From the IMG/VR virus record IMGVR_UViG_3300036792_000096, positions 26,658-90,657 of that record: DNA of 64,000 nt; one strand, given 5' to 3'. Numbering within the stretch: position 1 is the stretch's first letter; each line of letters opens with the position of its first letter. Source of the stretch: a virus. Shown piece after piece: positions 12,354 to 64,000 of the stretch. Made by a program: the position numbers and the translations under genes. The notes beneath the pieces were generated by a model. It did no database searches. It was not told where the DNA came from and saw nothing but the letters and a program-made list of their open reading frames with translations.

Positions 12354-12694
12354 GCGAGGTGCTCGCAGAGCCGACAAACCTCCAATGCGTCTGGTCCACC
12401 CCCGACTGCCCCATCCCGCCCGGGACCGTCCTGACCGCTCTCCCACCGCTCGAGGGCTCGCTCAGGGACGCCTATGACCTCGTGGTCGCCCTTGTGTGGG
12501 CCTATCCCCACCGTGGCGCGTCGCACCGAGAGATTGCCGTGGGGCTGGGGTGCTCCTCGAGCGCCGCTCACGGTTGGGTTGCCGAGTTGCGGAGGCTGGG
12601 ATACCTCACCGCCGGTCACGCCGTAGGCCGGTCGGGGAACAGGGCTCCGAACACCATCCGGCCGGCGGTAGTCCCGCACCGAGCCAGTGCCTAA
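12350..12694 (+). CDS. Winged-HTH protein (LexA DNA-binding-domain-like)
   Basis: SHREIAVGLGCSSSAAHGWVAELRRLGYL. Confidence 0.75.
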   Translation: MSEVLAEPTNLQCVWSTPDCPIPPGTVLTALPPLEGSLRDAYDLVVALVWAYPHRGASHREIAVGLGCSSSAAHGWVAELRRLGYLTAGHAVGRSGNRAPNTIRPAVVPHRASA

Positions 12695-12699
12695 CTGAC

Positions 12700-14376
12700 G
12701 TGCCCCCCGAACCGTGGCGTAACCGGATCGTCGGCGAGGGCGAGGAAGCGCCTGACCAGCTTCTAGCCAACCCGTTCAACTTCCGCATCCACCCCAAGGC
12801 ACAGCAGGACGGTGTAAGCGGGTCTCTGAACGATCTAGGCTGGATACAGCGGATTATCGTCAACCGGGCCACCGGCCATGTCATTGACGGTCACGCCCGG
12901 GTAGAACTCGCAATCAGCCGTGGTGAGCCGTCGGTGCCTGTCGTCTACGTAGACGTGACGCCGGAAGAGGAGCGCAAGGCCCTAGCCGTGTTCGACGCCC
13001 TCGGTGCCTTGGCTGCCATCGACGGCCCGAAGCTGGGTGAGTTGCTCGCCTCCATCTCCACCGAAGACCCGGATCTGGAGCGGATGCTGACGGATCTGGC
13101 TGGGGCCAATGGTGTGACCTTCGGAATGGGAGGCCGAGAACCGGAGGCGGACAACCTAGAGCAAGAGGTAGCCCGCGCAACCCTAGCGGAGCGGTTTCTC
13201 ATCCCGCCCTTCTCCGTCCTTGACGCCCGACAGGGGTACTGGCAGGAACGTAAGCGAGCGTGGCTCGCCCTTGGTATCCGGTCTGAGTTGGGGCGTGGGG
13301 AGACCCTGACGTATGTGGGCCGGGAGGACGAGACAGGAGAATCCGACGCGACGTGTCGTCCAGTGTCTCGTCCTCCCGGCCCACAGCGAAACGGCCAAGT
13401 GAGTCCAGGCGGGTCGCCGGGCGCGGCGACCCGCCTCAATCAGAACGGCAAGACGGAGCGGGGCGATGGCGCTGGACACCCGCTTACGTACAAGGGGCAG
13501 GAGTCGCTCCATGTGAACGAACCCGGATCGCGTTCAGCGACTCCTGCCCCTTCCCGTCGCATGACCTACGCTACGGGCTCTGCGGAGGACTTCACATCTC
13601 AGCGCATCCTTGAGCAGGTCCCTGCTCAAGGATCAGGAACGTCCATCTTCGATCCCGTGCTGTGCGAGGTGGTCTATCGCTGGTTCTGCCCGCCCGGGGG
13701 GCGTGTGCTGGACCCCTTCGCCGGGGGTAGCGTCCGTGGTGTTGTGGCGTCTCTTCTTGGGCGCTCGTACACGGGCATCGACCTATCCGAGGCACAGGTA
13801 GTGGCCAACAGAGGGCAAGGGGAGGCTCTCTGTTCACGTTCGCTAGATAGTGCAGTGGCACCTATGCCGCGGTGGTTCATGGGTGATAGCAGCAACATTG
13901 CCGCGGACTGGCCTCCGTCCGATGCCATGTTCGATCTCGTGTTCTCCTGCCCGCCGTACTTTGACCTTGAGGTTTACACGGATTCGCCTGCTGACCTCTC
14001 ACAGGCACCCGACTATGAGGCGTTCGTGGATGCGCTGGGCACCATCCTCACCGCCTCTGCTGGCCGACTCGCCGATGATCGGTTCGTGGTGTTGGTCATG
14101 GGAGAGGCCCGCAACGGGCGGGGCGACCTGTACGGGCTTGTGCCGGGCACCGTCAAGGCCGCCGGGCGAGCGGGGCTGACGTACTACAACGAGGCGATTC
14201 TTGTGACGATGGTCGGGTCGCTGCCGCTCCGGGTCGGGCGGGCCTTCCCCGTCTCTCGGAAGCTTGGGCGTACTCACCAAACCGTTCTCGTGTTCGTTAA
14301 GGGGGACGCTACCCGGGCCGCGGCTGCATGCGGTCATGTAGAGGTGGGGGATGTACCCGAGAGCGTCAACGCATGA
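12700..14376 (+). CDS. ParB-like N-terminal domain fused to DNA amino-methyltransferase
   Basis: LLANPFNFRIH...VIDGHAR; SIFDPVLCE, VLDPFAGGS, SCPPY. Confidence 0.9.
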   Translation: MPPEPWRNRIVGEGEEAPDQLLANPFNFRIHPKAQQDGVSGSLNDLGWIQRIIVNRATGHVIDGHARVELAISRGEPSVPVVYVDVTPEEERKALAVFDALGALAAIDGPKLGELLASISTEDPDLERMLTDLAGANGVTFGMGGREPEADNLEQEVARATLAERFLIPPFSVLDARQGYWQERKRAWLALGIRSELGRGETLTYVGREDETGESDATCRPVSRPPGPQRNGQVSPGGSPGAATRLNQNGKTERGDGAGHPLTYKGQESLHVNEPGSRSATPAPSRRMTYATGSAEDFTSQRILEQVPAQGSGTSIFDPVLCEVVYRWFCPPGGRVLDPFAGGSVRGVVASLLGRSYTGIDLSEAQVVANRGQGEALCSRSLDSAVAPMPRWFMGDSSNIAADWPPSDAMFDLVFSCPPYFDLEVYTDSPADLSQAPDYEAFVDALGTILTASAGRLADDRFVVLVMGEARNGRGDLYGLVPGTVKAAGRAGLTYYNEAILVTMVGSLPLRVGRAFPVSRKLGRTHQTVLVFVKGDATRAAAACGHVEVGDVPESVNA

Positions 14377-14873
14377 CCACTCCCACTCGGACGCCCCTCG
14401 CCGTCGTCGGGACAACCAAAGGACAGGACAAATCAGGCAACACGTCCGCGGCCTCTCGTCGCCAGATTGAAGCTGCCGAGAAGCAGCGACAAGCCGTAGC
14501 CCTTCGCCACCACGGGGCAACCTTCCAGCAGATCGCAGACCAACTTGGCTACACCAACCCGTCGGCCGCCCGCAAAGCCTTCCTCAAGGCCCTCGAGCGC
14601 TGGGGTGTGGAGGATGTCACCGACCTGCGCGCCGCCGAGGTGGCCCGGCTGGACTCCTACCTCCTTGTCGTCGCCACGAAGGTCAAGGCGGGTGAACTGA
14701 AGGCCGTTGAGACCGCACTCAAGATCAGCGAGCGCCGTGCGAAACTCTTGGGTCTAGACCAGCCTACAAAGGTGGTCATCACCGAGGATCTCTTGGAGGC
14801 CGAGCGTGACAAGCTCCGTGAGCGGGTCGCCACGCTCCGTGTCGTCGGAGGAGCGTCGTCTAGCGCTCCTTGA
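14373..14873 (+). CDS. terS: Terminase small subunit
   Basis: HTH (GATFQQIADQLGY), ERRAKLLGLDQP, directly upstream of TerL. Confidence 0.8.
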   Translation: MTTPTRTPLAVVGTTKGQDKSGNTSAASRRQIEAAEKQRQAVALRHHGATFQQIADQLGYTNPSAARKAFLKALERWGVEDVTDLRAAEVARLDSYLLVVATKVKAGELKAVETALKISERRAKLLGLDQPTKVVITEDLLEAERDKLRERVATLRVVGGASSSAP

Positions 14874-16338
14874 CGAGATCGCAGCGCTTCAGGCCGAGGA
14901 GCGGGCGCTACTGGCCGAAGCGGAGGTCACGAGGTTCTCCGGATACCGGGACCACCCTGTGGAGTTCGTCCGGGAGGTTCTCCGGGAGGAGATGTGGAGC
15001 AAGCAGGAAGAAATCCTCCGCTCCGTCTACCGGGATCGCCGAACCATCGTCAGTGCCTGTTTCGCTTCAGGGAAGACGTGGATAGCGGCCCGCCTCCTCG
15101 CGCAGTGGATCTCGACCGATCCTGGTGCGATCGCCATCACGACCGCCTCCGTCGGCCGGCAGGTAGCAGGACAGCTCTGGGGCGAGGTCCGCAACCTCTG
15201 GCGACGAGGAGTGACGCTGCCGGGCCAACTGGACCCCGCGCCCGGTGTCTCGCTTCCTGGGGATCTGCTCCCGAAGGCCCCTGAATGGATGGTGACGCCG
15301 GGCAGGAACTTCGCCATGGGCTTCAGCACGAACGACCCCAACCGCTTCTCTGGCTGGCACGGGGGGCGTGTCCTCGTGATCCTGGACGAGGCCGAGGGTA
15401 TTGACGATGACCTGTGGGACATCATGGAAGGCCAACTCTCCACAGGTGACACGGCCGTCCTGGCGCTCGGGAACCCCGACCCGGAGGGCATCCTCGGTGG
15501 CTTCCAGCACGCAGCATCTTCTCCGCTCTGGCACCACATCACGATCAGCGCCTTCGACACGCCGAACCTGATCGCCGGCCGGGACGACGTGGCTCCCTAC
15601 CTCGTGACCCGTCGCTGGGTGGAGGAACGCCGGCAGGAGTGGGGCGAGGACGACCCTCGGTGGATCACGAAGGTGCTCGGCCAGTTCGTGGAGGGCTCCG
15701 CGGCCAAGCACGTCATTCCTCTGTCGTGGTTCGAGCGGGCCGTGGACCGGCCCGGCGTGACGGCGGTGACTGAGAAGCCAGTGACGGGTTTGGACATAGC
15801 CCGGTTCGGCACCGACGACAGCGCCATTGTGATCCGTCAGGGTCCCCTCGTGCTCCACATGGAGCGCAAACACGGGTTCTCAGGCCCGGAGGTGGGGGGC
15901 TGGGCAATCGCCCGTATGCGCCAGCACGGCTCGGCAGTGGTGAACGGTGACAGCGGAGGGCTAGGCGGGCCGGTGCTGGATTTCATCCGTGAGACGCCGG
16001 GGATCCGCGTGCAGGACATCAATGCCGGCTCGAGGGCGGACGACAACGAGCGGTTCGTGCGCAAGCGGGACGAGCTCTGGTGGGGGGCTCGGGAACGCTT
16101 TGAGACCGACCGGATCGTCCTGCCGAGGAAGTTGGGTTCGGAGGTGGAGATCCTCAAGGGCCAAGTGACTCCGGTCCGCTACTCGTACCGGGTAGACGGC
16201 CGGATTGAGGTTGAGTCGAAGGACTCCATGGCGAAGCGGGGCCTTCCCTCGCCCGACCTCGCCGACGCTCTCTGTCTCGCCTTCATCGCCCCGTGGACGG
16301 CCCGCACCAACCTCCGCGACCTCATGGGCGGAGGCTAA
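14806..16338 (+). CDS. terL: Terminase large subunit
   Basis: Walker A (ASGKT), Walker B (VILDEAEG), GNP, GLDIARFGTD, SPDLADA. Confidence 0.96.
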   Translation: MTSSVSGSPRSVSSEERRLALLDEIAALQAEERALLAEAEVTRFSGYRDHPVEFVREVLREEMWSKQEEILRSVYRDRRTIVSACFASGKTWIAARLLAQWISTDPGAIAITTASVGRQVAGQLWGEVRNLWRRGVTLPGQLDPAPGVSLPGDLLPKAPEWMVTPGRNFAMGFSTNDPNRFSGWHGGRVLVILDEAEGIDDDLWDIMEGQLSTGDTAVLALGNPDPEGILGGFQHAASSPLWHHITISAFDTPNLIAGRDDVAPYLVTRRWVEERRQEWGEDDPRWITKVLGQFVEGSAAKHVIPLSWFERAVDRPGVTAVTEKPVTGLDIARFGTDDSAIVIRQGPLVLHMERKHGFSGPEVGGWAIARMRQHGSAVVNGDSGGLGGPVLDFIRETPGIRVQDINAGSRADDNERFVRKRDELWWGARERFETDRIVLPRKLGSEVEILKGQVTPVRYSYRVDGRIEVESKDSMAKRGLPSPDLADALCLAFIAPWTARTNLRDLMGGG

Positions 16339-17268: not shown

Positions 17269-17526
17269 ATGGCCGAGGCAGAGAACGGCGCTGGCCCCCT
17301 CAGCCTCTCGGCAGCCGAGGCGCTGGGGCTCCTGAGTCTCCATTCCAAGGTTCCCGTGGACAGCATGGACCCGGAGGCGCTGGGGGCGGTAGGGCGGATG
17401 CACGCCGAGCTCTGGCTTATCATGGAGGACGCCCGTACCTTGCAGGCCGGCGCCGATGAGGCGACAGGCAATGGCGCTACGCCGAAGCGCAAGCCCCGCT
17501 CATCCGTCCTGACGCCTCGCACGTGA
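17269..17526 (+). CDS. Hypothetical protein
   Basis: Coupled to portal start. Confidence 0.6.
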   Translation: MAEAENGAGPLSLSAAEALGLLSLHSKVPVDSMDPEALGAVGRMHAELWLIMEDARTLQAGADEATGNGATPKRKPRSSVLTPRT

Positions 17527-20102
17527 ACCGGGTTCTCACCCTCGCCGGTTCACCGCAGCGCACCCTTGCACCGTCTGATGTAACCCTGACGCCTGTAATG
17601 AAGATGCCCCGCCGTCGGGGTCTGATCGCCTCGGCAGCGCCCCTCGCCATCGACCTCGCATCGTCCATGGAAGTGCGCAGGACCCGGCAGGCGCAGCAAC
17701 AGATGGCGTGGCAGTTCTTCCGAGGTATAGGGGCTTGTTGGTATGGGTCGATGTTCAAAAGTAACGCTATCTCTCAACTGCGCATTTTTCCAGCAGAGCA
17801 ACGGGGGACCCGAGACGACCCGGTTCCCATTGATGACCCGTATTCCTTGCAGCAAGTCTGTCTGGACGACATGGCGAACGGGTTCTCCGGGCTGGAGCTC
17901 GGTCACGCCCCCATCCTCGCCTCGGCAACGCTGCAAGACTCAGTAGCCGGCGAGGCGTATTGGTACTCACGTCCAGACGAGGAGACCGGGGAGAATCGCT
18001 TTGAGATCCTCTCCATTGAGGAACTTGAGATGGGAGGTGCTTCGGGGTTCCAGATCCGCCGCTACCCGGGCGCCATTCCCGAGCCGATCCTTCCCGAGCG
18101 GGGAGACAAGATCGCCCGAATGTGGACGCCCTCGCCGGAGTGGAAGGATCTGGCTACCTCACCGATGCTTGTGCAGCACGACACGCTCGAGGAGTTGTGG
18201 CTACTGATCCAAGCTGGTATCGCGGCGGCGAAGTCCAGGCTCGTCGGCGGCAAGATCGTCACCATCCCCGAGGAGCTGGACCTCGATACGCCGGCAGGCC
18301 CAGACGATGAGCCGACACCCTTTGAGACGGAACTCCGCCGGGCCGGCGCTACAGCGATTCGAGACCCCGCCTCGCCTCTGCGCTGGTTCCCGGTTCTGAT
18401 CCGGGGCAAAGCCGACTACCTCAAACCAGAGTTCATCCATGTCGTTGACCTCTACAAAGACATGCCCAAAGAGGTCAGGGACGCAATCCTAGAGCTACGT
18501 ACGCGCTTCGCCCATGACTTCGACCTACCTACAGAACTTTTAACGGGTTTAGGTGACATGACGCATTGGAACGCCTGGATCGTGGACTCCATGACGTGGC
18601 CCCACCTCCGCCCCGTCGCTCAGAGGGTCCTCGCTAACCTCACCGTCTGTGCCTACCGCCCGCTCCTCATTGCCGGCGGCATGGACCCCCGAGAAGCCGC
18701 CACACAGGTCATCGGCTACGACGAAGGGCTTGTCGTCAGCAAGCCCGACCGCTCCGCCGCGGCGACGGTAGGCGTGGAGCACGGGTTCGTCGGCAACGAG
18801 GCATGGATGCGGAGCAACGGGTTCGACCCGGAGACGGACAAGCCATCCGAGGTCGAGCGGGCACGGATCTTCGGTATGCGCTGGGGCGACCCGGGCTTGG
18901 CGTCCGTCGGCTCGCCACCCGGGATCTGGGACAAGGCCACCGGCCGCATCGCCACCCGAGTCACCGAAGAGGAGAAGGGTGTCCCGGGCGTCAGCCCCGT
19001 CCAGCAGGACGCCGGCCCGGCCGGACCCGTCCAGCCTGCACCGGGCCCTCCCGAGCCGAAACCGGCACCCGGCGCCCCCGTACCCGCCCCGCCCGCTCCC
19101 GCCTCACGTCCACCGACCCCACCAGCGCAGCCCGCCGTGGCAGCGTCGGGCAACGGGCACGGCAAGCGCCTGGGAACCTTCGCCGCCATCCCGGCCGCCG
19201 ACCCGCCAGCGAACCACGTCAAGCGAGCCAAGCTGAAGCGGTTGGGGACGAAGCTGGGCGCCATCGACCGGGACCTCCTCCAGCGCCTCTCCGTCCTCGC
19301 CGACGACCGCCTCCACGCGACCGTCAGGACCGTGGGAAGCAAGCTTCGGAGCGCCGCCCAGGGCCGGCCGGTAGCGCCTACGCTGCGGGGCATGGACACG
19401 CTTCAGATCCCCCGCATGCTCGGCTCCAAGGGCTCCCACGCCCTCGGCCTCAACGACCACCTCGAAGTAGATGCTGCTGCGGCATCCTTCGCCGCCAAGG
19501 CCGTACCATGGCTCACGAGCGCTCAGGAAGCGGCCTTGCGCCAGATCGCCGATGCCACCGGCCAGGACTACGAGGAGTTGGCAGCCGAGTCCGAGTCTCA
19601 GCGCTCCGACTGGATCACGGCGGCGGAGGCGGCTCTCACCGCGGGCTTCGCCTCCATGGCCTTGGGGTTCTTGTACAACCCCTCGCAGCCGGAAGGACCG
19701 GGTGAGATGCCCGACACCATGGCCCCGCGGGACGCCATCCGTAGCGCCATGCAGCTTGCTGGCGGGGGAGACCCCGGCTCAGGCCCGCCGCTGGGGATCG
19801 GGACGGGGCCGCTCGCTACCGACGCCTTGGATTCGGGCGGGGCGGCCGTGGACGGGTGGACGTGGGACTACACCGACAGCGCCCGCACCACATTCCCGGG
19901 CCATCTACAGTTGGACGGCATAGAGTTTGCCTCTTGGGAGGACGACCAATTGCTAGTCCAGCCTGAGGACGATTGGGTTGATACGGCGCCGTATTATTCA
20001 ATTTCTGATCATCCGGGATGCTCTTGCGGTGTCACCCCGACTGTGATTCCAGTGGAGGATCTGGCGGCATCCGACGGGGAACTAGTGGGAGTGGAAGCGT
20101 GA
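17523..20102 (+). CDS. Portal protein fused via Pro-rich linker to MuF-like head morphogenesis domain
   Basis: QQMAWQFF, VAGEAY, RMWTPSP, LLTGLGDMTHWNAW; C-terminal H..LDG.EF...DHPGCSC. Confidence 0.85.
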   Translation: MNRVLTLAGSPQRTLAPSDVTLTPVMKMPRRRGLIASAAPLAIDLASSMEVRRTRQAQQQMAWQFFRGIGACWYGSMFKSNAISQLRIFPAEQRGTRDDPVPIDDPYSLQQVCLDDMANGFSGLELGHAPILASATLQDSVAGEAYWYSRPDEETGENRFEILSIEELEMGGASGFQIRRYPGAIPEPILPERGDKIARMWTPSPEWKDLATSPMLVQHDTLEELWLLIQAGIAAAKSRLVGGKIVTIPEELDLDTPAGPDDEPTPFETELRRAGATAIRDPASPLRWFPVLIRGKADYLKPEFIHVVDLYKDMPKEVRDAILELRTRFAHDFDLPTELLTGLGDMTHWNAWIVDSMTWPHLRPVAQRVLANLTVCAYRPLLIAGGMDPREAATQVIGYDEGLVVSKPDRSAAATVGVEHGFVGNEAWMRSNGFDPETDKPSEVERARIFGMRWGDPGLASVGSPPGIWDKATGRIATRVTEEEKGVPGVSPVQQDAGPAGPVQPAPGPPEPKPAPGAPVPAPPAPASRPPTPPAQPAVAASGNGHGKRLGTFAAIPAADPPANHVKRAKLKRLGTKLGAIDRDLLQRLSVLADDRLHATVRTVGSKLRSAAQGRPVAPTLRGMDTLQIPRMLGSKGSHALGLNDHLEVDAAAASFAAKAVPWLTSAQEAALRQIADATGQDYEELAAESESQRSDWITAAEAALTAGFASMALGFLYNPSQPEGPGEMPDTMAPRDAIRSAMQLAGGGDPGSGPPLGIGTGPLATDALDSGGAAVDGWTWDYTDSARTTFPGHLQLDGIEFASWEDDQLLVQPEDDWVDTAPYYSISDHPGCSCGVTPTVIPVEDLAASDGELVGVEA

Positions 20103-21193: not shown

Positions 21194-22075
21194 GTGGGCT
21201 CGGCAGCGACTCTCGTGATCTACCACGCTGACTGCTGGGATGGCTTCTGCGCGGCGTGGCTCATGCACCGCTACTACCCGGGCGACATTGCATTCCACGC
21301 CTCCCACTACGAGGATCCGCCTCCCAATGTGCGAGGCCACCGCGTCTTCGTGCTGGACTTCTCGTACCCCAGAGAGACCTTGGAAAAGATGGCGAAGGCC
21401 GCTGATGAACTGACCGTGCTTGACCACCACAAGACGGCAGAGGAAGCCTTAGCCGGGCTCCCGTACTGCACCTTCGACATGACGAAGTCTGGGGGGCAGC
21501 TAACTTGGGAGTGGCTCATGAAGGAGGGGTACCCGCCACCCAAACCGGCGGCTACCGGTTCGGCTTGGGAGCCTCCCGAACCGCCGTGGCTCGTGGACTA
21601 CACGGCCGACAGGGACCTATGGCGCTTTGCGCTACCCCGGTCCCGCGAGGTCAATGCGGCCTTGCGTTCCTACCCGCTCACCTTCGACGCGTGGGACGAT
21701 CTGGCTCGTCGCGGTCAGGGCCGTCTCCACGACGGGTTCGACTCGGAAGCGTTTGCCGACGAGGGCTCGGCCATTCTCCGGGCGGAATCTGTGGCTGTGC
21801 AGGCGCATGTCGCTGGGGCCAAGGAAATCGACATCGACGGCTATAAGGTGCTTGCGACCAACGCCACATGGCTGCATTCCGAGATCGCTGGCACGCTGGC
21901 GAAGGGGCGCCCGTTCGGCGCCACATGGTTCGAGCGGGATAACGTCCACCAATGGAGCCTCCGCTCAGACGAGCACGGCATCGACGTGGGAGAACTCGCA
22001 CGCCAGCACGGCGGTGGGGGCCATGTCCACGCGGCAGGATTCGAGGTACCTATCCCGGGAAGGACGAGCCCATGA
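21194..22075 (+). CDS. DHH/DHHA1 phosphoesterase (nanoRNase-like)
   Basis: YHADCWDG, LDF, LDHH, DRDLW, SLRS, GGGGH..AAGF. Confidence 0.92.
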   Translation: MGSAATLVIYHADCWDGFCAAWLMHRYYPGDIAFHASHYEDPPPNVRGHRVFVLDFSYPRETLEKMAKAADELTVLDHHKTAEEALAGLPYCTFDMTKSGGQLTWEWLMKEGYPPPKPAATGSAWEPPEPPWLVDYTADRDLWRFALPRSREVNAALRSYPLTFDAWDDLARRGQGRLHDGFDSEAFADEGSAILRAESVAVQAHVAGAKEIDIDGYKVLATNATWLHSEIAGTLAKGRPFGATWFERDNVHQWSLRSDEHGIDVGELARQHGGGGHVHAAGFEVPIPGRTSP

Positions 22076-24684
22076 CCAAGACCGCCACCCGAAGCCGCCG
22101 CACCGTGACTGCTGCTACCCCTCCGCCTCCATCTGGCCCCACGGCACCGGCCCCAGACACGCCAGCGGCCCCCGTCGACCCCATGCCAGCATCCGGCATG
22201 GTCTGCCTGATCCTTGACGACGACACGACGAAAGCGCTCGACGCCGCCTTCCCGCCACCCGACGGCGCCACCGTTCCTGTTCCCAGACACGTCACCTTAA
22301 ATTTCTTGGGCGACGTGAGCGCGCTGGACCGGGACACCGTGGAATCGGCCATCTCCGCTGCCCTGTCGGACGCTGGCGAGGACGGAGACGCGGGATCGGC
22401 CGACGGCACGGAGACCATCTCGGGAGTCTTCGGGGGACTGGCACGGTTCACAGCCGAGACCGACGAGGACGGCAACGAGGGCAACGGCTCCCTGACGCCC
22501 ATCGTCGCCCTGTTCGACAGCCCCGGCTTGGACGATATCCAGGATGCCCTCGAGGACGCCCTGACGGCTGTGGGGATGCCAGAGCCGACGCATGGGTTTA
22601 CTGCCCACAGCACACTTTTCAGGGCGGACCTGGGGGACACGGCCACCGTCGCCTTCCCCGCCCCGCCAGCGGTCAAGGCCAGCTTCACCCAGATCGCCCT
22701 TGTCTGGGGCGACTACGCGGATGCGGCTAACGTGACCATGTTCCCGGTCGGGGGCTCGGGCGAAGGCACGCCCGCGGCAGCCCCTGCCCCCGAGGAGACA
22801 GGCCAGCAGGCCCACGTCATCAAGCACACCCATGCCCCGGGGGACCCGCTCAAGGACGAAGATGAGAACATGGGGGCGAAGCTGGCTGAGTCAGACATGC
22901 CGCCTCCGGTTGCCGCCGTGCCTGCCGCGCCCGATCCCGACGCCCCGGCACCCGCCGAGGAGCCGAGCGGCCGGCCCCCCGCCGTTCCGGGCCCGTTGGG
23001 AAGGTTCGAATGCCTGCTGGTTACCGAGGGTGAACCAACGGACGATGGCCGGATCATCAAGCCTGGCGCTCTGAGGTTCCGTGATCCGCCCCTTCCCTTC
23101 ACCTTCACCCTGATCGACTCGGGCCATGCCGATGCCCGCTTGGGCGGTGTCCTGACCGCCGTCACCCGAGACGGGGACGCCATCATGGGCGAGGGAATCT
23201 ACGCCGACAACGAGGACGGGTACGAGCTCAAGGCAGCCGTGGATCAGGGCCTGCTCACATGGGTGTCGATCGACGTCGGGGACGACACGGTCGATATCGG
23301 CCTGGATGCCGACGGCACGGAGACGATGGTGCTGCTGGACGGGCTGCTCATGGGCGCCTGTGCCCTTCCCTTCGCCGCGCAGAACACGACTTGGATCCGC
23401 TCCGTCCCCGGCTCGGAGGCGCCGATGAGTCCGGACGGGCCCGGTGGGCCGAGCATGCTCCCGCTCCCGGCCCTCTTGGCGTCCGCCGGGAAAGTCACGC
23501 TGCGGAGCGTCCCGACGGATGATTGGCAGTACGAGTCCCTGACGGCATCGGCCACCGTATGTGCCTGCGCTGGTCAGGACGAAGGGTCGGAACGCTTCGG
23601 AGCGCCTCTGTATCCCGAGGACGACTGGTTCAGCGTCCCACCGCCCGAGGACCTGACGCCGCTAACGGTGCTGGCGTCTGGGCAAGCCTACTTCCACGCC
23701 TCCGGGAACACCTGCCACATCGCCATCCCCGGAACGTGCATCAAGGCGAACGATCCGATGATGGATCGGGACTTCTCAGCGTTCCACAAGGGCCTTGACG
23801 GTCTCTCTCGGGGGATACTGACCGCCTCTGGCGAGCAGATTCAGGTAGGCCAAGTGACTCTGTACGGAGGCCATGCCGATGTGGCCCTGTCGGCTGACGC
23901 CGCTCGGCGGCACTACGACGAAACACGGAGCGCCATCCTTGATGTGCGCGCCGTGTGGGACTCCCGCAATGAGACCTTGTGGTGCTGCGGAGCCCTGCGC
24001 TACCGGGCGACGAAGGCGGAGGTGCAGGAACTGCGGGCCACAGGCCACGTCTCAATCGACTATCGCCTCCTGCTGCCTGACGGCAGCCCAGGACTACCGG
24101 GCCAGCGCGGAGCCAAGCTGCGCCTGATTGCCCTGCCCGTGATTCCTGTGGGTGGACTCCCGCCGATCAAGGCGTTCGCAGCGTCGGGCAACCTCGTGTC
24201 AGTGATCCTCTCGGATTCGAGCGAGTTCGGGCCGACGGGTGGCAGCGTCACGGACAAGGACTGGGACGGCTCGGCCAGCCGCTTCAACGATGCCCAGTAC
24301 CAGAAAGCGGCAGCCGCCTGCGACCCCGCGGACAAAGGAACCGTCAAATCCCGTTGTTTCCTCCCACATCACGAACCGGACGGCACGATCAATCGTAACG
24401 GCGTCCATGCTGCGGCGCAGCGCGTGGGAGCGCTCGAGGGCCGAAGCCCCGACGCTGTCAGTGCGGCCAAGGCCCATCTCCGCAACCACTACCGCACGGA
24501 CCTTGACGAGGATCCGCCCGACAGCCTCGGCCAGCCCAGCCAAGCCATGACCGCCGATGGGCTGCTGCTGGATCTGGCGAAGGACATGTACGGCCGACGG
24601 CTGGACGACGAAGCCTCCGCGCTGGCCGGGGTGCATCGCCAGGAAGTGGACCGGCTCGGAGGGAAGATCCTGACGCCCCGGTAG
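22072..24684 (+). CDS. Capsid maturation protease with N-terminal 2H phosphoesterase (LigT/Acb1-like) domain
   Basis: HVTL.FLG (22288) and F.AHSTL (22606); EGEPTDDGRII...PLP, VSID; position between portal and capsid. Confidence 0.8.
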   Translation: MTKTATRSRRTVTAATPPPPSGPTAPAPDTPAAPVDPMPASGMVCLILDDDTTKALDAAFPPPDGATVPVPRHVTLNFLGDVSALDRDTVESAISAALSDAGEDGDAGSADGTETISGVFGGLARFTAETDEDGNEGNGSLTPIVALFDSPGLDDIQDALEDALTAVGMPEPTHGFTAHSTLFRADLGDTATVAFPAPPAVKASFTQIALVWGDYADAANVTMFPVGGSGEGTPAAAPAPEETGQQAHVIKHTHAPGDPLKDEDENMGAKLAESDMPPPVAAVPAAPDPDAPAPAEEPSGRPPAVPGPLGRFECLLVTEGEPTDDGRIIKPGALRFRDPPLPFTFTLIDSGHADARLGGVLTAVTRDGDAIMGEGIYADNEDGYELKAAVDQGLLTWVSIDVGDDTVDIGLDADGTETMVLLDGLLMGACALPFAAQNTTWIRSVPGSEAPMSPDGPGGPSMLPLPALLASAGKVTLRSVPTDDWQYESLTASATVCACAGQDEGSERFGAPLYPEDDWFSVPPPEDLTPLTVLASGQAYFHASGNTCHIAIPGTCIKANDPMMDRDFSAFHKGLDGLSRGILTASGEQIQVGQVTLYGGHADVALSADAARRHYDETRSAILDVRAVWDSRNETLWCCGALRYRATKAEVQELRATGHVSIDYRLLLPDGSPGLPGQRGAKLRLIALPVIPVGGLPPIKAFAASGNLVSVILSDSSEFGPTGGSVTDKDWDGSASRFNDAQYQKAAAACDPADKGTVKSRCFLPHHEPDGTINRNGVHAAAQRVGALEGRSPDAVSAAKAHLRNHYRTDLDEDPPDSLGQPSQAMTADGLLLDLAKDMYGRRLDDEASALAGVHRQEVDRLGGKILTPR

Positions 24685-24694
24685 GCGGGATGCG

Positions 24695-25033
24695 ATGATG
24701 TTGCGCATGAACGAACGGCCGATGCGCACCCCCGAGGTGGCCCGCATGCTGGGCGTGTCGTTCCGGCAACTCGACTACTGGTGTCGTGCCGGCTTCATCC
24801 CCGACGCCGAATCTCCCGGCTCCGGGCGTCAACGCTCATGGACCGCAGAGCAGGTACGGGCTGCGGAGGAGATCGCCACCGTCTTCGTCCTGCGAAGCGA
24901 CGAGAACCGTCACTCCCGTCCCGACTACGGGCGGCTCCTGACCCTCGTGCGCAACCTCCGGGCCATGGGGCTCGACCCGCTGGAGCTGGCAGGGGTGAAG
25001 GCCGATGCTGAGGCGACTCCGAGAAGCGCTTGA
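24695..25033 (+). CDS. MerR-type HTH protein
   Basis: EVARMLGVSFRQLDYWCRAGFI...GSGRQRSW. Confidence 0.85.
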   Translation: MMLRMNERPMRTPEVARMLGVSFRQLDYWCRAGFIPDAESPGSGRQRSWTAEQVRAAEEIATVFVLRSDENRHSRPDYGRLLTLVRNLRAMGLDPLELAGVKADAEATPRSA

Positions 25034-25220
25034 GCGGAGGCGGGACCGCAGGCAATGTCCCCACCCGGAGCACCGGGTACGCTGCGTGCATGGAGACGAG
25101 GCGGTGCTCTGCCGCTCCCGGCGCAAGTGCCTTGAGTGCAGTCGCTACCTTCCCGGCCCGCTTCCCGAGCGGTGCTGGTACACCGGGGAGCCCCACGTGT
25201 CGCTGAGGAAGCCTGAGTGA
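25005..25220 (+). CDS. Small Cys-rich protein
   Basis: CPH...RCVHGDE...KCLEC. Confidence 0.6.
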   Translation: MLRRLREALERRRDRRQCPHPEHRVRCVHGDEAVLCRSRRKCLECSRYLPGPLPERCWYTGEPHVSLRKPE

Positions 25221-25579
25221 GCCTCATTGACGACCTTGCAGCACTCCTGCGGAACGCGCAGGATCACGAACGGCTGTTCGCAGCCATGACCCGATTGGAG
25301 ACGAGAATGGGAGCGATAGAGGACGCACTGGCAGCAGTGAACACGCAACTTTCGGACGCAGCGGCAGCCGCGAAGACCCGGGATACAGCAGAGCAGGCCG
25401 CACTGACGGCGCTGAACGACCACGTCGCGACACTGGAATCCGAACTCGCCGGAACCACGATCTCCGCGGCTGCGCAGGCGTCAATCGACGGGATCAAGGC
25501 ATCGATCGGTGTGATCGGCGGTCTCGATCCGGCTGCGGCTGCGGTCCCCCCTCCCGTCACGCCACCGGCCACGCCCTAG
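25217..25579 (+). CDS. Coiled-coil hypothetical protein
   Basis: Ala-rich heptads, Pro tail, GTGA coupling. Confidence 0.65.
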   Translation: MSLIDDLAALLRNAQDHERLFAAMTRLETRMGAIEDALAAVNTQLSDAAAAAKTRDTAEQAALTALNDHVATLESELAGTTISAAAQASIDGIKASIGVIGGLDPAAAAVPPPVTPPATP

Positions 25580-25589
25580 CGTTTTCCCA

Positions 25590-25870
25590 AATAGGGGCAG
25601 AGGCACCGAAGCGACTACAGCCAGGGATGAGCCCTCCAGCCGAGCAAGGTGAGGGACGGGTATGGCACAGCCGGGAGTGTGCTGCCAAGGGTCGCTGAGC
25701 CGAAGCCCCGCTCAAGAGAAGAACGGTGACAAACCGGTACCGGAGAGGACACACTCGGCTTGCTCTCCGGACCGGTCACCGCTAACATCGGATCGTCTAC
25801 AGCGAACGGAGGGACCTACCGGTTCCTCAGCGACGAGGCCCTACTTCCTTGGGGGCCTCGTTCCTTTTCG
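25590..25870 (+). ncRNA. Candidate structured non-coding RNA
   Basis: Large intergenic gap with nested stems (GGGGC/GCCCC, GCGAC/GTCGC, CCCTC/GAGGG, TGGCA/TGCCA), long stem 25724-25781, ending in a terminator. Confidence 0.55.
25834..25869 (+). terminator. Intrinsic terminator
   Basis: CGAGGCCC...GGGCCTCG stem followed by TTCCTTTT. Confidence 0.7.
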
Positions 25871-25879
25871 TGGGACTAA

Positions 25880-25913
25880 TTGACAAGTCTCCACATCGCC
25901 AATCATGATGTGG
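25880..25913 (+). promoter_or_regulatory. Promoter for major capsid gene with overlapping inverted repeat
   Basis: TTGACA-18nt-CATGAT; CCACATC-9nt-GATGTGG. Confidence 0.65.
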
Positions 25914-26041
25914 CCCAAGCACACCAGCGTCCAGACGGGCGCTAGCGGCGAGGGCGTCCAAGACGGGCGTCCGGCAAGGAAGCACCTCGGAGCCATCACG
26001 GCCCGTGATCTTGTCGGCGCGTCCTGTCGAAAGGCCCTCCC

Positions 26042-27913
26042 GTGCAACCCCACCCCCGCACCACAGGCTTCCGCTTTCCCGCGGGCAGCCCGTTCCCGCT
26101 GTGGCGACCGTTCCAAGTCTGTCTCGCCCCCGACGACGACAAGCCGGGCGCCGAGCCGCAGCCCCTGGTCCCCGAAGACCTCACCGCCCTCGACCAGAAG
26201 ACCCTCGCCCGCACCGAAGCGGACCTCCTGAAGAAGGGCAAGCGCCTCCAGGACGCCCCCGCCTCCGCCGAGACCGTGGCGGAACTCCGCGAGGTCGTGG
26301 GAGCGCTCGGCAAGGTCCGGGCCGAGGTCACCCGCCGAGCCGAGGAGGCAGCCCAGCACGAGGACGAGAAGGCAGCGCTCCTCGCCGAGCTCGAACCAGC
26401 CGCTGTCGCCGATGTCGAAGACCCCGAAGGCACAGAGCCCGCAGAGGGCGAGACCGAGGGCACCGAAGGCGAGCCGGCCGAGACGGCACCGGCCGCACCC
26501 GAGCCCGTGGGTATCGCCGCATCCGCCGACCCCGCGCCTGTCCCCGTCCGCACCCGGCCCCGGGCGCCGTCGGTCCGGGACATCCCGGCGAACGCCATCC
26601 GGCCCGAGCACCGCCCTCGCCTCGAAGCTCCCCGCTCCAAGGTGACCATCACCGCCTCGGGTGACGTGCCCGGCTTCTCCGCCGGAATGGCCCTGGATGA
26701 GAGCGAACTGGGGAAGGCCTTCGCTGACAAGGCCTGGTCCATGCTCCGCGGTGCGCCGAAGTCCCGGGACTACTCAACATCGTCGTCCGTGGTCTCCATC
26801 GGAGTGGAGTACCCCGAGGAGCGCACGCTCCGGGACAATGACACCACCACCTCCAACATGGCGAAGATCGAGGCGGTGACCGCCTCCGGGGCCCGCAAGC
26901 GGGGTCTGACCGCCAAGGGTCCGAACGCCATCGTCGCCGCCGGCGGTCTCTGCGCCCCCGTGGCCGTGGACTACAGCCTCATGACGCTCGGCACGCCGGC
27001 CCGGCCAGTCAAGGACGCCCTGGTGCGCTTCGGTGCCGAACGAGGCGGTCTCCGCTTCATCACCCCGCCGCACCTCAGCGATGTCGCCCCCGGCGTCTCG
27101 CTCTGGACGCACCAGACGGACGCCGCCTGGACAACGGGGATGCCGACGAAGCCCTTCGTCATCGTCACCTGTGGTACGGAGACCGTCGTGCAGGTCGACG
27201 CCATCACGCTCGGGATCGTCGTCGGCAACTTTGATCGCATGACCTTCCCGGAGCACTTCGCAGCTTGGTACAAGCTGGCGCAGGTCTACTTCGGCCGCTT
27301 CGCCGACTCGCACCTCCTCGACCAGATCGCAACCGCCTCCGTGGCGACCAACACCACCCAGGACCTTGGTGCCGCCCGGGACATCCTGGTCCACTTGGGT
27401 ACGGCTGCGGCCGGCTATCGGTCGCGCAACCGCATGGAGACCGACGAGATCCTCCAAGTGCTTCTGCCGGCGTGGACCCGGGACCTCATGCGGGCGGACT
27501 TTACCCGCCAGCACCCCGGCGACGAGGCGGTGCAGCTCGCGGACGGCGAGATCAACGGCTACCTGGCAGCCAGCAACCTCGAGCCGACGTGGTACCTCGA
27601 TGGCCCGAACACGGGCGTGAACCAAATCTTTACCAGCCAAGGCGCCGGGTCGCTCGAGGGATTCCCCGGCACCGTCCAGGCCTTCATGTTCGCCCCCGGC
27701 TCGTTCCTCCACCTGGACGGCGGAATGCTGGACCTCGGAGTGGAGATTCGGGACTTTACGTTAGATCTCCAAAATAGGGTAGGTGGCTTTCTTGAGACCT
27801 TCGAGGCAGTGGCGTATCACGGCGTTGAAGCCCTTCAAGTGAATATGCGGGTTTGTCCGTCTGGTGGAACGAGCGCTGCCGTTCTTCCATCCACGCCTTG
27901 CTACGGAAGCTAG
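26042..27913 (+). CDS. Major capsid (hexamer-type) protein with N-terminal scaffold region
   Basis: Coiled-coil/acidic N-terminus; AAGGLCAP..DY, RGGLRF, GGMLDLG..RD; resembles Rosebush/cluster B capsid family. Confidence 0.9.
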   Translation: MQPHPRTTGFRFPAGSPFPLWRPFQVCLAPDDDKPGAEPQPLVPEDLTALDQKTLARTEADLLKKGKRLQDAPASAETVAELREVVGALGKVRAEVTRRAEEAAQHEDEKAALLAELEPAAVADVEDPEGTEPAEGETEGTEGEPAETAPAAPEPVGIAASADPAPVPVRTRPRAPSVRDIPANAIRPEHRPRLEAPRSKVTITASGDVPGFSAGMALDESELGKAFADKAWSMLRGAPKSRDYSTSSSVVSIGVEYPEERTLRDNDTTTSNMAKIEAVTASGARKRGLTAKGPNAIVAAGGLCAPVAVDYSLMTLGTPARPVKDALVRFGAERGGLRFITPPHLSDVAPGVSLWTHQTDAAWTTGMPTKPFVIVTCGTETVVQVDAITLGIVVGNFDRMTFPEHFAAWYKLAQVYFGRFADSHLLDQIATASVATNTTQDLGAARDILVHLGTAAAGYRSRNRMETDEILQVLLPAWTRDLMRADFTRQHPGDEAVQLADGEINGYLAASNLEPTWYLDGPNTGVNQIFTSQGAGSLEGFPGTVQAFMFAPGSFLHLDGGMLDLGVEIRDFTLDLQNRVGGFLETFEAVAYHGVEALQVNMRVCPSGGTSAAVLPSTPCYGS

Positions 27914-62592: not shown

Positions 62593-63884
62593 GCCTCCGC
62601 CGGCCAGAGGCGCAGCGCATCGGCGACGACTTCCTATTCACCTACCCCGTCGGTGGGATCAAGGTTGAGATGAGCTCGGTGAGCGAGTCTCGCCGCGAGG
62701 GAACACACGCCATGGTCGTCGTCCGGTCGAACGCGGGCAAGCTGTGCTGGACCCGGCTGAAGCTGGACAGCGACCGGGAGCGGAGCTCGCTGGCGAAGAC
62801 GCTGGCGAGCAAGAATGGCACTGCCGACTTCCCGTGGGCTGACGCTCTCGCTCAATGCGCCGAGATGGCCTGCGAGATGTATCAGGCGGGGGAGCCGACG
62901 GTGTTGCTGTGGGACGTACCGGCTCCCATGGAACCGTCCTACCTCTTAGATCCTCTCCTCCCTCTCAACGAAACGACGACGCTCTACGGCGATGGCGACG
63001 CGGGGAAAAGCTTGGTCGCCTTGAGGATGGCGCTTGCGGTGACATCCGACGCCCCGATGGAAGGCGTGAAGCTAGCGAGCAAACCGGGAGCGGTCATGTA
63101 CCTCGACTGGGAGACGAATGCGGAAACACACGCTAGGAGGATTCGACGTTTGGCCGCGGCGGAGGGGATCGTGACAGCCCCAAGGATCCACTACCGGAAG
63201 ATCAAGCGGGCTGTTGCCGACGAGATACGTGGGCTTCAGTACGAGATCGTAAAGCTTGGCGTGGTCCTGGTCATTGTGGACTCGCTGGGGGCTGCGGCCG
63301 GGATCACCTACGGAGATTCGATCAACGACCCGTCCGTCGGAGCCGGCGTGATGAACGCTCTGCGGGGGCTCAACGCAACCCGTCTCCTGATCCACCACAT
63401 GACCCATGATGCGGTCAAAAACGGAGGTTCGACAGCCCCGTTTGGATCGAGGTATTTCCGCAACTATTCACGGTGTTTGTGGGAGATGCGGCGAAGTCCT
63501 ATTTCAGAGGATGTAGCCCGGATTGCCCTGTTCAACCGAAAAATGAACGATGACGCTCGGCGGGAGCAACCAGTCGCCTACGAGATCGACTATGGGGGGC
63601 GAGGTGGTCCAATCCGTTTCCACAGCGTGGAGCTCGCCGACGACGCCGAGTTGATCCAGCACCTTCCGCTCGTTGACCAGGTTGTCCACTACCTTGAGCG
63701 CCAGCATGGGGCGCCGATGACGACGAAGGATCTCTGCGACCGGACTGGGAAGGATGCTGGCTCCCTTCGCCGGACCCTGAAAGGCAGTCCTCGAGTGACT
63801 GAACTTGACTCCGGCCAAGGCCGTTCGGGAGGCACCTACTGGGCGCTGGCTGCGCGAAGTTTGCGCGAGGTTGGGCATGAATGA
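62589..63884 (+). CDS. RecA-fold AAA helicase (RepA/AAA_25-like) with C-terminal wHTH
   Basis: GDGDAGKS, YLDWE, VIVDSL, LIHH, PFGS. Confidence 0.88.
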   Translation: MSLRRPEAQRIGDDFLFTYPVGGIKVEMSSVSESRREGTHAMVVVRSNAGKLCWTRLKLDSDRERSSLAKTLASKNGTADFPWADALAQCAEMACEMYQAGEPTVLLWDVPAPMEPSYLLDPLLPLNETTTLYGDGDAGKSLVALRMALAVTSDAPMEGVKLASKPGAVMYLDWETNAETHARRIRRLAAAEGIVTAPRIHYRKIKRAVADEIRGLQYEIVKLGVVLVIVDSLGAAAGITYGDSINDPSVGAGVMNALRGLNATRLLIHHMTHDAVKNGGSTAPFGSRYFRNYSRCLWEMRRSPISEDVARIALFNRKMNDDARREQPVAYEIDYGGRGGPIRFHSVELADDAELIQHLPLVDQVVHYLERQHGAPMTTKDLCDRTGKDAGSLRRTLKGSPRVTELDSGQGRSGGTYWALAARSLREVGHE

Positions 63885-63959
63885 ACCTCGCGCAGTGCGC
63901 GAGGTGGGTGCGCGAAGTGCGCGAACCTCTACCCAAACCCGACGAAACAACCTCGCGCA
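63851..63959. repeat. Cluster of 10-bp direct/inverted repeats (TGCGCGA[A/G]GT), probable origin iterons
   Basis: Copies at 63851, 63862, 63896, 63909, 63918 (partial) and inverted at 63885, 63950; more AT-rich tract follows. Confidence 0.75.
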
Positions 63960-64000
63960 CTTGAATATACACGGATGTCTATATCCGCAGGTCAGAGGCA

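Follow-up and report, generated by a model that had tools for sequence, protein, structure and literature searches.

Our analysis of the gene-free interval that precedes the major capsid gene of a soil phage suggests that positions 25580-25870 are the hairpin-rich 3' untranslated tail, together with the terminator, of a lineage-specific gene cassette, a reading to which we give about an even chance. The stretch belongs to no described RNA family, and its kind, a hairpin-rich operon tail with a terminator, is a familiar one. Transcripts arriving from upstream would run through this tail and stop at a plus-strand hairpin (25832-25862) that carries a U-rich tail; an 8-bp hairpin and a long hairpin ahead of it would probably assist, by adding sites of pausing or termination or by blocking 3' exonucleases. 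The upstream unit would in this way be insulated from the capsid gene, which would be transcribed separately from a promoter at 25880-25909 and carry its own conserved 125-nt leader. We infer both the termination at 25832-25862 and the absence of any role of the tail beyond termination and RNA stability. An earlier note on this DNA had proposed a novel structured noncoding RNA here. That the stretch is noncoding, that it holds strong hairpins and that it matches no Rfam family all stand, but the multibranch domain, the motifs and the loop pairing on which that proposal also drew are at chance level, and support for a new folded RNA gene is weak.

The window, the whole 64,000-nt stretch of DNA that we analysed, comprises bases 26658-90657 of a 90,657-bp IMG/VR virus record with an estimated completeness of 99%; GC content is about 65%. 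The source is a soil phage with an actinophage-type capsid, for which the best cultured relatives come from large phages of Arthrobacter, Gordonia and Microbacterium, with 33-42% amino-acid identity. A 148-bp direct repeat is found at both ends of the record (genome 1-148 and 90510-90657, the latter being window 63853-64000) with 99.3% identity, and the genome is probably complete, the repeat being either terminal or an overlap left by circular assembly; despite it, IMG/VR lists the record as linear and free of end repeats. The head module and the features around the capsid gene are as follows, in window coordinates, with L002 and L003 denoting the nearest accessible relatives.

14806-16338, large terminase (head module)
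17523-20102, portal (head module)
between the portal and the head-maturation protein, DHH phosphoesterase (head module)
21952-24684, head-maturation protein (protease), 910 aa (head module)
24695-25033, MerR-like helix-turn-helix protein (MerR_1 / HTH_17), with weak excisionase and small-terminase PHROG matches
25005-25220, small Cys/Arg-rich ORF, 71 aa
25217-25579, plus strand, orphan ORF, 120 aa, Ala-rich and coiled-coil-like, the last gene of the cassette 24695-25579
25594-25709, plus strand, 5' multibranch domain, stems present, fold no better than chance
25724-25781, plus strand, long hairpin or inverted repeat, three blocks with 19 Watson-Crick pairs in all, 15-nt loop
25809-25828, plus strand, 8-bp hairpin GAGGGACC/GGUUCCUC with one G-U pair
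25832-25870, plus strand, terminator-like hairpin, a GC-rich stem of 9-11 bp followed by UUCCUUUUC
25880-25909, plus strand, predicted capsid promoter TTGACA-18-CATGAT, the sole promoter-like site in 24600-26300
25916-26041, plus strand, structured 5' leader of the capsid mRNA, about 125 nt, 77-79% nucleotide identity to L002 and L003
26042-27913, plus strand, major capsid protein gene (phrog_777, E = 3e-69)

The GTG start of the capsid gene at 26042 is backed by the conserved N-termini of ten metagenomic homologues (11 homologues were aligned), which sets the true gene-free interval at 25580-26041, about 460 nt. The earlier note had correctly placed its candidate upstream of the capsid gene, and its statement that the stretch holds no credible ORF is borne out: GC content by codon position is flat across 25580-25900, unlike in the genes on either side. 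Candidate ORFs in the stretch have no Pfam or PHROG match. The translations are Arg/Ser/Pro-rich strings, no frame of the stretch retains residual protein similarity, and a 1-nt insertion after 25714 in one strain (X2), seen in one contig at depth 3, would put all three candidate ORFs out of frame. A small peptide gene was rejected, and so was a tRNA or tmRNA, ARAGORN having found none. The earlier note recognised no RNA family, and a scan of the whole window against Rfam 15 likewise gave 0 matches at the gathering threshold; when 25400-26100 was searched at E<=10, the only match was HCV_X3 on the minus strand, with 17.4 bits against a gathering threshold of 65 and an E of 1.2, which is chance level.

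All of the stems named in the earlier note are present in the minimum-free-energy fold. The whole 301 nt fold with a z of -2.77, and the 300-nt windows of the stretch rank 67-87 of 1808 genome-wide by GC-adjusted folding energy. This places them in the top 4-5%, which is not extreme; several other loci show far more structure. Within the 280 nt, moreover, the signal is confined to the 3' half. The long stem at 25724-25781 is present in the fold and clearly above chance (25720-25785: minimum free energy -32.6 kcal/mol; z = -4.73 on the plus strand and -5.27 on the minus strand), with pair probabilities of 0.93-1.00; it contains no G-U pairs and is equally stable on either strand. The 3' segment that follows (25786-25872, holding both terminal hairpins at 25809-25868) has a z of -3.15 on the plus strand and -1.59 on the minus strand. 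This plus-strand bias results from G-U pairs, and the one in the 25809-25828 hairpin points to plus-strand specificity of that hairpin. The terminator that the earlier note saw at the end of the stretch is recovered as a terminator-like hairpin at 25832-25862 with the U-rich tail CCUUUUC; it lies 250-290 nt beyond the stop codon (25577-25579) and 12 nt ahead of the sole predicted promoter. A strict consensus terminator scan did not call this hairpin because its loop exceeds 8 nt and its tail has fewer than 5 T in 8.

The elements proposed for the 5' half fared less well. The stems of the multibranch domain are there (GGGGC 25594-98 with GCCCC 25705-09; AGCGACU 25610-16 with GGUCGCU 25690-96), but the stability of 25590-25713 is that of chance, with a z of -0.72 on the plus strand, where 49 of 200 shuffles are at least equally stable, and of -0.01 on the minus strand; pair probabilities of the inner hairpins are 0.37-0.44. 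CAGCCR does recur at 25618, 25637 and 25668, but at a frequency expected by chance: seven other 5-mers also have at least three copies in the stretch, and the maximum multiplicity is equalled in 45% of shuffles. We rejected it as a motif for that reason. The loop of the long stem, ACACUCGGCU, is complementary to upstream segments as had been described. The best duplex joins CACACUC-GGCU to AGCC-gg-GAGUGUG at 25668-25681 with -17.1 kcal/mol, a value that shuffled targets reach in 5% of cases, shuffled loops in 27% and random genomic 15-mers in 24%. Because random sequence gives such complementarity as often, a kissing loop, pseudoknot or switch was rejected. The abundance of GGA motifs that had been remarked upon disappears against base composition (9 GGA in 287 nt versus 6.7 expected), and without enrichment of GGA a CsrA/RsmA-type sponge RNA was rejected as well.

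The three-gene cassette 24695-25579, between the genes for the head-maturation protease and the capsid, is lineage-specific. Differences between strains in its first two genes fall mostly at third codon positions (where positions are listed), which argues that these genes are real and constrained. Its last gene, the 120-aa ORF, has only weak coiled-coil matches in Pfam and no homologue except itself among 5.8 billion proteins; a search for related loci was empty, and the ORF was not found in L002 or L003 (full records G001 and G002). In the present phage the slot upstream of the promoter and leader is occupied by the cassette and its 290-nt tail. The corresponding contents are a 126-aa ORF in L002 and about 2 kb of reverse-strand genes in L003, so what lies between protease gene and capsid promoter varies from phage to phage.

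A blastn search with 25200-26300 against 50,697 phage records gave no match. Capsid-anchored searches in IMG/VR and JGI yielded two close relatives only, both of them without the stretch, and the same approach in GTDB genomes yielded none. Exact and degenerate patterns built from the long hairpin and the closing stem found 0 occurrences in IMG/VR and 0 in GTDB genomes, as searched with records very close to the window possibly withheld. The stretch was not found anywhere in the full records of L002 and L003, nor does its own genome hold a second copy. Homologues of the stretch outside the near-identical strains in soil metagenomes were thus not recovered by these searches. L002 and L003 are the nearest accessible relatives; the closest capsid homologues are P0003 (82% identity) and P0004 (73%), from Logan assemblies. 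Homology to L002 and L003 starts at the promoter and leader (from about 25916 onward) and is absent upstream.

The predicted capsid promoter is the one promoter-like site found in 24600-26300, against 0.1 expected from shuffles. L002 and L003 carry TTGCAC-17/18-GAGACT/CATGCT, equally far from the leader. The loci inspected in Arthrobacter phage Mimi (L025 1549-1756) and Gordonia phage Mareelih (L027 1870-2038) run from a compact terminator hairpin through a promoter and a leader of about 70-100 nt to the capsid gene, which suggests that in this group the capsid gene probably forms a transcription unit by itself. The locus described here shares with them the GC-rich hairpin and U-rich tail, then the sigma-70-type promoter, the untranslated leader and the capsid gene. 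It differs in the roughly 220 nt of extra noncoding sequence, with the 19-bp hairpin, that precede the terminator, in a longer terminator loop and in a broken U-tract (UUCCUUUUC). In phage DSL-LC01 (L026 1690-1810) there is a 121-nt gap between the protease and capsid genes.

Taken in this setting, several observations favor an operon tail that ends in a terminator. The last hairpin has its U-rich tail, and the 3' segment folds well on the plus strand only. The only promoter-like site in 1.7 kb starts 12 nt beyond that hairpin, and homology to L002 and L003 begins only at the leader. The same order of elements recurs in Mimi and Mareelih. The confinement of structure to the 3' half, the chance-level stability of the 5' domain and the lack of a matching Rfam family point the same way, as does the variability of the slot, the relatives having neither the element nor the 120-aa ORF. 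Against this reading, a terminator needs about 40-60 nt and not 290, which leaves the extra 220 nt unexplained, and the strict scan did not call the hairpin. The long hairpin, free of G-U pairs and as stable on the minus strand, may have a role at the level of DNA. Finally, the stretch diverges less among strains than does adjacent coding DNA.

This last point comes from four soil metagenome runs, from four studies, that hold parts of 24700-26700. One of them (X1) is probably the source sample; the other three contribute the following pieces.

25664-25860, X2, 8 differences and one 1-nt insertion after 25714
25546-25711, X3, 6 differences
25466-25706, X4, 14 differences and 4 gaps

The stretch is 4.1% different in X2, compared with 12.4% in the adjacent upstream coding pieces, and 3.6% different in X3, compared with 8.2%; pooled over both strains, the values are 3.9% for the stretch and 10.0% for the adjacent coding DNA (Fisher p = 7e-5), on strain contigs that are short, of low depth and cover the stretch in part. 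A neutral spacer would be expected to differ more than constrained genes, and this one differs less, which hints at constraint on its nucleotide sequence. Divergence is mosaic, however. The capsid piece of X2 has 0 differences in 191 nt, whereas those of X3 and X4 differ by 15-17%, so that low divergence need not mean selection.

It is possible, though unlikely in our view, that the stretch instead gives rise to a small phage RNA, discrete, stable and about 275 nt long (25590-25868), either transcribed from its own weak promoter or processed from the tail, and acting in trans or as a decoy. The strong hairpins and the 3' terminator would suit such an RNA, as would the lower divergence relative to flanking coding DNA and the position of the X2 insertion after 25714, the only indel reported inside the stretch, in an unpaired linker between the two domains. 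TAGCGT at 25577-25582, about 7 nt before the first stem, can be read as a possible, weak -10 element. Yet the promoter scan found no site upstream of 25590, the stability of the 5' domain does not exceed that of shuffles, the loop complementarity is that of chance, the homologues found in our searches are limited to near-identical strains, and the mosaic pattern, with the invariant X2 capsid piece, weakens the argument from conservation. The bolder version, in which the stretch of about 275 nt yields a stable, lineage-specific RNA that is cut from or terminated at the end of the cassette, is kept by purifying selection and has a new function, we regard as quite improbable. Such an RNA might, for example, serve as a decoy for a nuclease or defence factor of the host, or regulate the capsid leader next to it.

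At the other extreme, the stretch may be a functionless relic, a decayed gene or recombination scar left in the variable slot, of which only the final terminator is still in use; its apparent conservation would then reflect recent divergence of the strains that carry it. We consider this improbable too, to much the same degree as a discrete small RNA. In its favor, each relative has different content in the slot, the neighboring ORF of 120 aa is an orphan, the 5' half shows no coding signal and no fold stability above chance, and the mosaic divergence fits such a history. A relic is harder to reconcile with a stretch that is less diverged than adjacent coding DNA in both X2 and X3 and that has no residual protein similarity in any frame. 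A site acting at the DNA level seems very unlikely. Here the 19-bp inverted repeat at 25724-25781 would serve protein binding, for instance by the MerR-like protein, or recombination or packaging. Its arms pair entirely by Watson-Crick pairs with equal stability on both strands, and a MerR_1 / HTH_17 protein is encoded 700 nt upstream. The arms are, however, separated by 15 nt and broken by bulges, an uncommon arrangement for an operator; no other copy of the long hairpin occurs in the genome; and nothing links the MerR-like protein to the repeat.

The stretch also has parallels among known systems. 3'-UTR-derived RNAs and protective 3' stem-loops of bacterial operons are known kinds, and the stretch resembles them in lying directly after a stop codon, in ending at an operon terminator and in its stable hairpins. 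By comparison with 3'-UTR-derived RNAs it is a candidate known from its sequence. Small RNAs have been described from intergenic regions of mycobacteriophages, among them an RNA between genes 63 and 64 of D29 and a stable RNA at the right end of L5, D29 and StarStuff; these came to light through RNA-seq and Northern blots, show conservation throughout a phage cluster and have no known function (PMC5712189). The stretch shares with these RNAs (PMC5712189) that it is an actinophage noncoding sequence of a few hundred bases with no conserved ORF. Unlike them, the stretch is absent from sister phages and has been seen only as sequence. If it is indeed a cassette tail with a terminator, the architecture is an ordinary one for phages, in which terminator and promoter make the capsid gene its own transcription unit, and the main use of the result lies in annotating this uncultured phage group. 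Of modest interest is that the tail, and the adjoining capsid leader too, are better conserved among soil strains than the neighboring genes.

The leader itself offers more. Its counterparts in L002 (4872-4998) and L003 (4846-4973) precede capsids that are 69% and 63% identical, respectively, to the one here. The consensus fold of the three phages has 38 pairs, 3 of them with compensatory changes, and the single-sequence z is -2.1; the leader has no Rfam match. Four elements make up the fold: a 5' hairpin, a long helix that is invariant (GCGUCCGGCAAG with CUUGUCGGCGC), an apical hairpin, and a base helix. In the last of these, GGCGAGGGC is paired with GCCCUCCC, a segment directly before the start codon, and the helix overlaps the likely ribosome-binding site GAAAGG. 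This conservation and fold indicate that, of the sequence upstream of the capsid gene, it is the leader that forms the conserved structured element, and it lies outside the coordinates given in the earlier note. It is a candidate cis-regulatory or mRNA-stabilising element and, being conserved in three diverged phages with its base helix over the ribosome-binding region, a better candidate than the 280-nt stretch for a new cis-regulatory RNA.

Two other regions of this genome stood out in the folding analysis. The most hairpin-dense part is window 13290-13570, within ORF 12496-14376, at 5.2 sd below the GC-adjusted mean folding energy. It contains perfect inverted repeats of 22 nt (13314-13335 / 13364-13385) and 17 nt (13492-13508 / 13536-13552), and it separates, in frame, the ParB-like part of the ORF from its DNA-methyltransferase part, with TGACGTATG and TGACCTACG as flanks; it may be an inserted element that preserves the reading frame. 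A second very hairpin-dense region, at genome 2300-2700 and upstream of the window, has 300-nt windows 3.5-4.5 sd below the GC-adjusted mean and includes a 20-bp perfect stem near genome position 2503.
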